Assembly: GCF_041248615.1 (NCBI RefSeq)
Contig: NZ_CP158425.1
Source: Escherichia coli
GTDB taxonomy: Bacteria > Pseudomonadota > Gammaproteobacteria > Enterobacterales > Enterobacteriaceae
DNA length: 64,000 nucleotides
Direction: 5' to 3' (one strand)
Shown: one piece after another, positions 12,001 to 15,000 of the stretch
How the letters are laid out: each line of letters starts with the position of its first letter
Numbering within the stretch: position 1 is the first letter of the stretch
Position numbers: made by a program

Positions 12001-15000
12001 GGGAATATGATTCCATCAAACCATCCTTATTTTGAAGTCATCTCAAAAGCATGTATAAATGGAGTGCGTGACTTTGTTCGTCAAAACCCGTGGGTAGTCT
12101 GACGGTCAACTATAAAGCATAATATAATTAGTAATAACAAGGAACAGACATGAATGAAAACTCAGTAATCTTAATAAGTTTATTTTGGTTTTTTTTGGGA
12201 TCGAGTGTTGTAGCTGGTTTTATGGATGCATCATTATATTGCTGGATTTTTGCAGCCATAAGCGCATTGTTTCTTCTTTCGGTGATACAAACACCAAAGG
12301 AGTTAACGGTATCTATTAGTCATATGACAAGCAAAACGCTGATCTCAAAGACAGATGATGGATACACATTTAGCATTTCACCTTACGGAGACGGGTACCG
12401 CTTATCAGTCTCGCCTGAAAATCGTCACAATGGTACCCAAAGCTTTGACGGCTGGTTCCCACGTTTTTTTTCCGAACCACAGTATGCCAAATCATCTTTA
12501 ACTAAATTTCTCGGTGAGTCCTTAGTATGGGAAGAAGATTCAAGTAATGCTCTATGAGATTACTTATTATAAATTTTTCTATTAATCTCCATGGAGTGAT
12601 ATATGAATTTGGCCTATTTTTTATTTTTGTCTATAACTGTTATGCTTACGAGCTTTATTATTAAATCACTTGTCGTATTGGTAAAGTTCAAATTACTTCG
12701 TGATGAACGTCTCGAATATACCAGCAATAAAAATATTGATGAGATGTACGATTTAATGAATGCGAAGGAAGAAATCCTCATAAGGCATCATAAGCAGATG
12801 TTGGCATTGCATCTTTCACTATTAATATTCGTTCTATTTATTGCTTACATTTACTAAAAATAATTTTATTCAACATTTCAACAAAGGGTTTTCAATGGAA
12901 AGCTTCGAAACTGAACAAATGATTCAATATGCTTTCTACATAAATATCGTAATAACGACTGGTTTGGCATGGTTTTGCTTGCGGTCAGGATTGCATTACA
13001 ATTTTTTCAGAAAAGCAGAGAGTGCCAGAACAAAAGGGCTGAGTAGTACCTCTACTGAACACGGTCCAGCAATAGTGAGACTAAAGAAGCTACAAGCATT
13101 AGTAGATTTTATTAGTAACTGTGCTTTTCTAATCCTTTCAATTGGCACAGCTTATATTTTGTATGTTTGGAGCCACAGTTAACTCATACGAGGTAACTTC
13201 GGCAGGTAACAACTTCTAATGCAGGACTTTAATAACTCTAAGGGATTCTACATGAAAAAAGACGATCTAATTACGCGTTGTAAATTACTTAAAGGCGAAC
13301 GCGATGAGTCTATCTTTACCATATTAATTGGGATAGTAGTAAAGCTGGGGCTGGTAGGCCTGGCATTCTATCTGTTGCTTGGTTCCACGATTGATTGGTC
13401 AAGCTGGAAAACTTATGCCGCCATGTTGATCTTGGGAGCATTTCTCTAAAATCTTGAACCTTTTTTCACTCATTACAAGCCATGACCTAGTGCGTAGATC
13501 ATACGATCTTTAAACCTTATGTCATTGATTTATAAGTACATATAACAAAGATTATGTTAAATACTGTATGTATGTACAGCATCAACAGTTGCCCCCCTCA
13601 TATTGAGGTAATTGCTACATTCATACCACTATTCTTCTTATAGTATCGACATCCTGAATTATTGCACCCTACTGCTTTGTCTTTAGCTGTTCCGAATTAA
13701 AATTCATTGCTCAATTTGGATCACATGACGATCAGCGTATTCCTTTGCTTTATCAAAGTTAAGTTTTTAAAACATAAGATATGTAATGACAAATTCTCAA
13801 TCTGATTTTCCTTTGAACGATCAAAATTTTCAGGCAGATTTGCTGAAAATCAAAAAGGTTTTCGCCGACCTTATAACGCAGGCATCAGATGGTAAGATAC
13901 CCATAAGGTCTTCTCATGTACACGGCTTACACCATTTCGAGGAGCTCTACATCCGGGCAAGAGCAGGCATGTGTTCGGTCCTGGGATATCCGGTCATGGT
14001 TGTTTCAACTATCTCAGTTAAAGAGCCCGGCACAGGCATTTTTAGAGCGCTTCTTGCAGAATTGAAATGTATTGCAGATGAACAAAATTACATTTTGAAA
14101 ATTGAAAATGTACTGCCTCCCCTATTCCGCAAATACCTTATTCAAGAAGGTTTTGTTTTCCCAGGTGAACCTTGGATGTGTGGTTCCGGCTATTGGTTTA
14201 AGAACCCACAAGTACTTCATGAAAATATTGAGTTATTATCTGTTTAAGTCGATCTAACAATTTCACTGGAGCTAACATGTCCCCGGAATTGGTATCAGAC
14301 ATTGCAAGAGTGGCGCATGAAAAGCTACTTTCAATTTTAACGGAGTGCGGCATAGAGAAGACGGCAGGCACTTGCCTTTTTGCAAGCTATCTTGTGTGTT
14401 ATTTAGCAAAAACTAAAGGTCTAGATGCTGTTGTCCGTGGGGGTAACGGTGCAGATGATGGCGGTATATTTATAGAGTGTGGTGGCTTTGGCCATTATTG
14501 GTGTGAGTTGAATTTCGAAGAAGTGCAATATTATATTGACATCACTTCCGAACAGTTTGGGTTTCATCCATACATAGTGAAACTCGCCAACGATATAACA
14601 GGATGGCCTCGATATATTCCTGGTGATCAGGAAACGGTCGATAGTCATTTAGAACAATTATTACGCGACGGCTATACAGAATAGGCTGCGTATACCCTAT
14701 CGCAGCCTTTCAGGCTCTTAACCCTTGTGACCTGTTAACGGAACCACTCAGGATGACGCTGCCGATCAACTTTGATAACCTGCGAATTAAATTCAACGAC
14801 ATCCGCTGGAGTAAGCATTAATTCATCAGGATTTACAATAAATGGTCTTAAAACCACTTCGCCACCGTCTTCTTTTGCACCGTAGATATTAATAAGAAAG
14901 TGCAGTCGTTGATTTCCTTCAGCATTGCGTTGCCATTCTCTAAAAGTCAAAGTTTGTTTAATATAGTTTGTTAAAAGAAATGCGAATTCAGATTCTTCCG

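Follow-up and report, generated by a model that had tools for sequence, protein, structure and literature searches.

In a stretch of Escherichia coli DNA of 64,000 nucleotides (NCBI RefSeq assembly GCF_041248615.1, contig NZ_CP158425.1), hereafter called the window, two small co-oriented genes on an IncHI2 plasmid backbone, here named A and B, are labelled in RefSeq as 'hypothetical protein' only. The product of gene B very probably adopts a transglutaminase/papain-like fold, as judged from its structural model, with Cys33, His73 and Asp88 as the predicted active site. Taking all the evidence together, the best explanation is that B is a thiol enzyme of mobile elements that acts on host proteins, an account that we put forward at slightly less than even odds. 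Multidrug resistance in Enterobacterales travels to a large extent on IncHI2, IncHI1, IncHI1B and IncC plasmids, whose large 'hypothetical' backbones are mostly unexplained. Two of these 'hypothetical' plasmid genes now gain a fold and a testable active site, and a hitherto unannotated family of enzymes, with about 267 clusters and more than 2000 plasmid records, is defined and tied to polyvalent host-directed enzymes.

Fold and predicted active site of protein B

Gene A (13786..14247, + strand; WP_000185304.1) encodes a protein of 153 amino acids (aa) with a predicted GNAT fold, and gene B (14277..14684, + strand; WP_000074418.1) encodes a minimal Cys-His-Asp protein of 135 aa with the predicted transglutaminase fold. 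Both start with ATG and are separated by 29 bp (14248-14276). This spacer holds a GGAG Shine-Dalgarno sequence for B (14267-14270, + strand), 6 nt 5' of the ATG as read from the sequence, and its shortness suggests that the two genes are co-transcribed. A preliminary description of the window had reported the same arrangement, a 153-aa open reading frame (ORF) followed 29 bp on by a co-oriented one of 135 aa, and ORF calling agrees with it. It had also listed the motifs GTCLFA, GHYWCEL and YYIDITS in that order in the 135-aa protein, taken them as a transglutaminase-like cysteine peptidase core, and named structure prediction and conservation of the Cys, His and Asp among homologues as the checks to be made. 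The motifs are indeed found in this order within residues 31-91 (31-36, 72-78 and 85-91, respectively), and both checks came out in favour of the proposed core.

Structure prediction yielded a papain-like fold. In the AlphaFold2 model of B (pLDDT 90.3, pTM 0.85), Cys33 opens the helix at residues 33-46, His73 opens the strand at 73-80 and Asp88 closes the strand at 83-88. His73 and Asp88 are thus modelled on adjacent strands with Cys33 at the helix N-terminus, the canonical placement in transglutaminase-like/papain-like enzymes (clan CA). B is also similar in overall structure to solved members of this group, and the structures closest to it are those of relatives of transglutaminase-like peptidases (2hly and TglA). 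2hly serves as a modelling template for lasso-peptide B-type proteases.

The conservation alignment comprised 111 diverse homologues with 23-54% identity to B. The predicted nucleophile Cys33 (codon TGC, 14373-14375, + strand), the predicted general base His73 (CAT, 14493-14495, +) and Trp75 are each present in 111/111, Gly55-Gly56 and Phe94 are likewise invariant, and the predicted third triad residue Asp88 (GAC, 14538-14540, +) is present in 110/111. The spacing from Cys to His and from His to Asp is 40 and 15 residues in B, and the family signature reads T-x-G-x-C-(L)-(F/Y)-A … R-G-G-(D/N)-G-x-x-D-G-G … G-H-Y-W-x-E … D-I-T-(A/S)-(D/E)-Q-F-G … Y-x-P-G. B is under purifying selection, with a ratio of nonsynonymous to synonymous substitution rates (dN/dS) of 0.30 against the R478-type allele and of 0.21 between two IncHI1-type alleles.

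Sequence-family resources place B in no described family. Neither A nor B has a match at threshold in Pfam, NCBIfam or PADLOC. B itself has no Pfam match at E<=1, and does not reach the gathering thresholds of Transglut_core (PF01841) and Transglut_core3 (PF13471). Among the 111 members, sub-threshold matches to Transglut_core (3 members, best E 0.0018) and Transglut_core3 (5 members, best E 0.021) occur, none of them significant, and Tox-PLDMTX is also among the coherent sub-threshold matches of a few members. B has no match in PHROGs, one B-family member matches one PHROG, of unknown function, and searches of PDB sequences with a single sequence or a profile returned no meaningful match. No signal peptide can be read in the B sequence, and neither A nor B has a secretion or trafficking domain. 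We infer that B is a soluble, cytoplasmic thiol amidase or transamidase, in both its catalysis and its class of substrate.

Two more specific enzyme types share features with this fold. Arylamine N-acetyltransferases (NATs) also use Cys-His-Asp, and B might be an acyl-CoA-dependent acyltransferase of their kind, not a hydrolase or transamidase; NATs are the top two, weak, matches of B among viral protein structures, and the neighbour A likewise has an acetyl-CoA-type fold by model. However, NATs are three-domain enzymes of ~270-290 aa, whereas B with its 135 aa is core only; its best structures are the transglutaminase-like 2hly and TglA, and the sub-threshold Pfam matches of its family are to Transglut_core, Transglut_core3 and Tox-PLDMTX, not NAT. 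The assignment was rejected on size and family, and we leave it a slim chance. The other type is the leader peptidase of ribosomally synthesised and post-translationally modified peptides (RiPPs), of the lasso-peptide B2 type. Some B-family members match Transglut_core3 weakly, but no lasso cyclase (Asn-synthetase-like), PqqD/RRE or precursor peptide was found in the window annotation, in 10 contexts or in a Pfam census of 78 neighbours. This candidate was rejected for want of a co-localised cyclase, RRE or precursor, and we hold it to be highly improbable.

A family carried by mobile elements

To find B homologues, 1.84 billion representatives (clusters at 50% identity) were searched exhaustively with a profile. 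The search returned 267 of them at E<=1e-3, of which 175 also reach E<=1e-10, where a word-indexed search had given only 16 matches. B is carried by 2091 plasmid records, and its homologues are located on conjugative plasmids, integrative elements and prophage ends, with integrases adjoining some of them. Forty-nine non-redundant loci were sampled from plasmids, integrative elements, prophages and genomes, including those of Pseudomonas, Burkholderia, Hydrogenophaga, Achromobacter and Rhodanobacter. The B family is carried almost exclusively by mobile elements. As for the window locus itself, 1066 plasmid records match the 1.5 kb around A-B, 640 of them over at least 80% of the query, and the locus is 100% identical across hundreds of records. 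The matching plasmids are mostly conjugative and come from Escherichia, Salmonella and Enterobacter; for example, pSTM6-275, which carries A and B, is typed as IncHI2A, MOBH and MPF_F.

One fusion links the family to polyvalent proteins. On a 191-kb viral contig (IMG/VR contig 3300025534_000213), the protein L023:4894-8949 has a B-type domain with an intact triad at residues 369-463 (hidden Markov model [HMM] E 1e-19), followed directly and in frame by the ADP-ribosyltransferase (ART) domain ART-PolyVal at residues 512-649 (E 3.4e-32, above cut-off). Pfam matches ART-PolyVal in three stretches of this protein, whose mechanical ORF looks over-extended by ~300 residues at its start. By this single example, the B family occurs both fused to a hallmark domain of polyvalent proteins and as solo genes, as polyvalent modules do. 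Other fusions of the B-type domain (P0156, P0107, P0138 and P0166) involve an RMF-like domain (E 1e-8), an S-adenosylmethionine-methyltransferase-like domain (sub-threshold) and zinc ribbons, one of which matches Lar (restriction alleviation) weakly. Because the family is found on mobile elements and in one case fused within an ART polyvalent protein, a mobile-element effector is the most likely role for B.

The neighbours of B were examined by clustering 422 genes from the 49 loci, the scan of the genome collection having used a tight alignment. In the Pfam census of 78 neighbours, integrase, UmuDC-like proteins, orphan DNA methylases, NA37, ParB-HTH, DUF2786, AlkB-like, a Tad2-like anti-Thoeris domain and DpdA were found, each seen once or twice, and most neighbours had no annotation. 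The annotated ones are of types usual among the accessory or establishment genes of mobile elements. Some homologues adjoin EcoRII+Dcm, RES-domain or PLD-like genes, and accessory regions of plasmids often hold defence systems, which would fit a protein that serves host and plasmid together in anti-phage or anti-plasmid defence or in exclusion, and not in counter-defence. Against this, no PADLOC model matches B or its window neighbours, B has no conserved sensor or effector partner, and the fusion with ART-PolyVal in a polyvalent protein suggests a role on the side of the invader. We give such a defensive function little probability, and return to B as an effector of mobile elements.

Gene A and the shuffled C-A-B array

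The preliminary description left A as a partner of unknown function. Family databases indeed give A no match, including none to Pfam Acetyltransf, but the structural model (pLDDT 82) now provides it with a GNAT core fold (β4-α3-β5-α4-β6), and its top structural match is the anti-CRISPR AcrVA5. A loop at the β4-α3 junction, K79-E-P-G82-T-G84, can be compared with motif A (Q/R-x-x-G-x-G/A); the IncHI1B homologue has F-I-T-N-Q-G there. From the model, binding of an acetyl-CoA cofactor is plausible, and A is likely a protein acetyltransferase.

A recombination junction lies on either side of A, the two being seen in different lineages. The upstream junction lies at 13755..13765, 21-31 bp 5' of the ATG of A, where blastn homology of the window to three IncHI2 variants (L086, L088 and L089) starts; these variants carry a further gene, C, in the order C→A(→B). 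The downstream junction lies at 14230..14238, at the 3' end of A: ~400 R478-type IncHI2 plasmids match the window only from 14234 on, with 94.6% identity, and they keep B while A is replaced by a segment with a trypsin-like protease gene. In K. pneumoniae pRIVM_C019770_1, which is of the R478 type, this trypsin-like serine protease is encoded at L016:4915-5586 (Pfam Trypsin, E 5e-9), and the junction falls 13 nt 5' of the stop codon of A. In one IncHI1 plasmid A is chimeric, with only the C-terminal ~60 residues A-like. HMM labelling of loci further showed at least four independent contexts in which B stands without A and, in L005, an A without B.

C is a separate unannotated family of small proteins, found beside A in L005 and in IncHI1B plasmids, with two copies matching each other at a BLASTP E of 5e-26. 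Copies are located at L077:5511-6020, L005:6660-7070, L002:4866-5321 and L082:3788-4396. The family is present on 2262 plasmid records, among them IncHI1B, IncC, Vibrio, Pseudomonas and Aeromonas plasmids plus a Nostoc plasmid. Its invariant pattern is E-C-D-G…P-H-x-W…D-(Y)-R-(L)-R-M-W, with Cys-to-His and His-to-Asp spacings of 37 and 11 residues. Profile-profile comparison of C with B brings the Cys, His, Asp and a conserved Tyr into register at E values that are not significant (0.033 and 0.012), and the sole Pfam hint for C is Transglut_core3 (E 0.26) over the Cys-His stretch. From these patterns we hypothesise that C is a second transglutaminase-like Cys-His-Asp family.

The order of the three genes varies among plasmids. 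IncHI2 variants with an A 97-98% identical to that of the window have C→A→B (L089) or C→A (L088, where the sequence extends only to the end of A); IncHI1-type plasmids have C→A→B; IncHI1B-type plasmids have C→A; the Citrobacter-type has A→C with B 1.2 kb downstream; and the window has A→B, with no C anywhere in its 64 kb. Spacers are very short or the genes overlap; in L081, for instance, 14 bp separate two genes, and in L077 two overlap by 11 nt. Since A is flanked by C and/or B in all sampled loci except two (L098 and L102, where neither was seen in the stretch examined), the IncHI unit is a shuffled C-A-B array of small enzymes, not a dedicated pair. C and B are each far commoner than A and occur mostly without it. 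DUF6884 adjoins the C-A pair in IncHI1B plasmids (L077:6480-7136, E 3e-5, below cut-off) and was seen in the neighbourhood of one B homologue (E 8e-14).

These data bear on the suggestion, made in the preliminary description, that the two genes form a toxin/immunity or regulatory module. In a toxin/immunity or toxin-antitoxin pair, A would neutralise B, a toxic peptidase or deamidase, or else B would neutralise A, a GNAT toxin of the TacT/AtaT-like kind. The tight spacing and shared orientation of the genes, the existence of papain-fold deamidase or amidase toxins such as SseI and PMT, and the fact that every sampled A locus except two has a gene for a Cys-His-Asp protein (B or C) beside A would suit such a pair. 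However, an obligate, conserved A-B pairing, as in type II toxin-antitoxin or toxin/immunity systems, is not seen: most lineages with B have no A, no neighbour of B recurs across the 49 loci, and a toxin is not expected to outlast its antidote as B does in the ~400 IncHI2 plasmids without A, or beside the chimeric A of the IncHI1 plasmid. In structure comparison, GNAT toxins match A no better than ~170 ordinary GNATs do, and neither protein matches a toxin, antitoxin or defence family (Pfam, NCBIfam, PADLOC) or has a domain for secretion or trafficking. The many contexts of B without A, the replaced or chimeric A and the want of a recurrent partner therefore argue against a toxin/immunity or toxin-antitoxin pair, which we regard as quite unlikely, and the idea of a self-contained two-gene cassette gives way with it.

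A looser partnership would be a single pathway in which C, A and B work on a common substrate, the GNAT, for example, acylating a small molecule or peptide, which the thiol enzymes would then hydrolyse or transfer, or in which A acetylates B and C to regulate them. Nearly every A is flanked by C and/or B despite the changed order (C→A→B, C→A, A→C, A→B; two exceptions), and the short spacers and overlaps of L077 and L081 are as expected of such a pathway. Yet B and C are far more widespread than A: C is found on IncC plasmids and one Nostoc plasmid, and elements of Pseudomonas and Burkholderia carry B. Purifying selection also holds on B although A has been swapped out or altered. Moreover, the A carriers are all related large enterobacterial plasmids, mostly MOBH where typed, so that the adjacency may be inherited synteny. 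A joint pathway is in our view unlikely.

Surroundings and possible regulation

Upstream of A, a palindrome resembling a LexA (SOS) box, TACTGTATGTATGTACAGCA, lies at 13562..13581 (+ strand), 205 bp from A, and agrees with the 20-mer consensus at 17/20 positions. By chance 0 matches at this level are expected in the window. The sole other one (55200-55219) is directly upstream of a umuD-like/umuC-like operon (umuC-like ORF at 55657-56916), and we treat this umuDC box as validating the match upstream of A. No LexA box was found upstream of B homologues elsewhere, and the one upstream of A belongs to a lineage-specific segment that replaces C. SOS control of A-B through this box may exist and is offered as a lead, not as a finding. 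A sigma-70 promoter scan gave no convincing + strand promoter upstream of A, and an Rfam scan of 12800-15900 returned nothing. Samuel et al. are said to have described, in 2024, anti-defence genes in the leading region, the first-transferred region next to oriT, together with a hairpin of the single-stranded-DNA-promoter type. No such hairpin was detected in the 341 nt upstream of A (13450-13790), whose folding is no better than that of shuffles (z -0.9 and -1.1). Downstream, the inverted repeat GGCTGCG-N10-CGCAGCC followed by TTT (14684..14707), read from the sequence, lies between B and a convergent 175-aa ORF. It is possibly a bidirectional terminator, on weak evidence; the terminator scan did not flag it because its loop exceeds 8 nt.

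Upstream of A-B, four small co-oriented ORFs (135, 84, 113 and 76 aa; 12150-13449) have hydrophobic, membrane-like segments and match no family save for a weak sub-threshold DUF3165 (E 0.045). They are part of the segment that replaces C in the window lineage. Further upstream is a backbone cluster (7476-11203) of DUF1173 (7476-8795, - strand), an orphan Dcm-type DNA cytosine methyltransferase (9046-10515, -) and a thermonuclease with a signal-peptide-like N-terminus (10649-11203, +); this DUF1173/Dcm/thermonuclease trio recurs beside the C-A genes in IncHI1B plasmids. DUF4942 is also in the window neighbourhood of A-B. Convergent to B are two ORFs labelled 'hypothetical': one of 175 aa (14735-15262, -) with sub-threshold matches to iSTAND (E 0.03) and PADLOC PDC-M24A (E 0.009), and one of 128 aa (15429-15815, -) that looks membrane-anchored. 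A 606-aa ORF (15889-17709, -), resembling a truncated Tn3-family transposase by sequence only, then opens a GC-rich segment after the backbone genes. In pSTM6-275, the A-B locus is flanked on one side by a Tn7-like sil/pco island, DUF4942, DUF1173, the orphan Dcm methylase, the thermonuclease and several small ORFs, and on the other by a tet(A)/class 1 integron resistance region. The place of the transposase-like ORF leads there to isochorismatase/EamA/tet(A)-tetR(A) and the class 1 integron, and is thus the boundary of the resistance region.

Proposed mechanism and role

In the proposed mechanism, His73, oriented by Asp88, would deprotonate Cys33 at the helix N-terminus, and Cys33 would attack an amide carbonyl in a peptide or isopeptide bond or in a Gln side chain. 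The resulting thioester intermediate would be resolved by water, giving proteolysis or deamidation, or by an amine, giving transamidation. B would in this way cleave or covalently modify a host protein, and so favour establishment of the element or counter host defence. A, as a small GNAT-fold protein, would be co-transcribed with B. The C-A-B array of IncHI-type plasmids, represented in the window by A-B only, might act as a 'split polyvalent protein', and the LexA-box-like site may couple expression of the array to the SOS response in the window lineage.

Several observations weigh against B being an effector of this kind. The fold alone, as modelled, fits protease, deamidase, transglutaminase or acyltransferase chemistry alike, and the 422 clustered neighbours of the 49 loci include no recurrent partner of B that would point to a substrate; the individual 'anti-defence-like' neighbours are each single occurrences. 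On the viral side, tblastn detected no match to B in 50,697 isolate phage genomes, Foldseek of B against viral structures (BFVD) gave nothing at E<=0.001, and a search with the B-type domain of L023 for more polyvalent fusions returned only the same contig. Nothing relevant on the B family or on transglutaminase-like proteins in anti-defence was found in the literature. The IncHI1B homologue of A has no counterpart of Gly82, a residue of the CoA-loop motif. The LexA box is not conserved in relatives and stands 205 bp off the start codon of A. In an IncHI1 relative, 25-30 kb (insertions included) separate the locus from the MobH relaxase/mobI/oriT region, and a place in the leading region is no more than possible.

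With these points taken in, a more specific role, in which B acts on host proteins as a mobile-element effector within a split-polyvalent-like set of C, A and B, is possible, with the balance leaning clearly against it. The broadest version is more doubtful still: B, and probably C, would represent a new class of invader-encoded thiol enzymes that edit host proteins covalently by cleavage, deamidation or cross-linking, either disarming bacterial immunity or reprogramming the recipient, and would form with A a split polyvalent protein that is expressed on entry and is SOS-inducible in the window lineage. If host defence or physiology is the target, these proteins would newly count among the factors that determine the host range of plasmids, and might offer a point of attack against the spread of plasmids. 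Should they prove inert for transfer, a clean family definition for annotation still results.

Comparison with known systems

The closest relatives of B are in the transglutaminase-like superfamily (PF01841, PF13471), with Atu2299 (2hly), S. pyogenes TglA (9crn) and LapG (4fgo) as solved examples. B agrees with them in the order and placement of Cys, His and Asp, and shares the 'G-x-C-x-x-(F/Y)-A' and 'H-x-W-x-E' signatures. It differs in that no model of the superfamily matches it at threshold, its 135 aa amount to a bare core, and it has invariant motifs of its own (R-G-G-D/N-G-x-x-D-G-G, D-I-T-A/S-D/E-Q-F-G and Y-x-P-G). B is predicted to be cytoplasmic, is encoded on mobile elements and, unlike LapG, is without a signal peptide.

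Papain-fold effectors, for example SseI (4g29), SpvD (5lq7), the C3 domain of PMT (2ebf), Ceg10 (9b8d) and protein-glutaminase, are enzymes of one genome directed at the proteins of another, as B most likely is. However, these effectors are secreted against eukaryotic hosts, or are extracellular, and have extra domains, whereas B has neither a secretion signal nor a delivery domain and its target would be bacterial.

Polyvalent proteins, known from phages and conjugative elements, string together enzymes directed at the host, GNATs among them, which are also found as solo genes (Iyer et al. 2017, PMC5512222). GNAT domains are among their modules, often beside ARTs, and the peptidase superfamilies in that survey are zincin MPTase, assemblin-like, DD and LonC, with no papain/transglutaminase-like module (PMC5512222). 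B resembles these modules in its one viral fusion with ART-PolyVal and in its solo versions within arrays of small enzymes on plasmids; the difference is that A and B of the window are separate small ORFs, and that a single fusion is the example.

A, for its part, is like AcrVA5 and minimal GNATs a small single-domain protein, GNAT by its modelled fold, on a mobile element, but it has 14% identity to AcrVA5 and no sequence-family matches. Compared with the usual GNATs, a long N-terminal helix replaces β1-α1-α2 in the model, and the glycine of the CoA loop is not universally kept. The fold of B and its predicted chemistry are of a known kind; what is new is a family outside Pfam, NCBIfam and PADLOC that is abundant on plasmids of clinical importance and has distinctive motifs and a minimal architecture.

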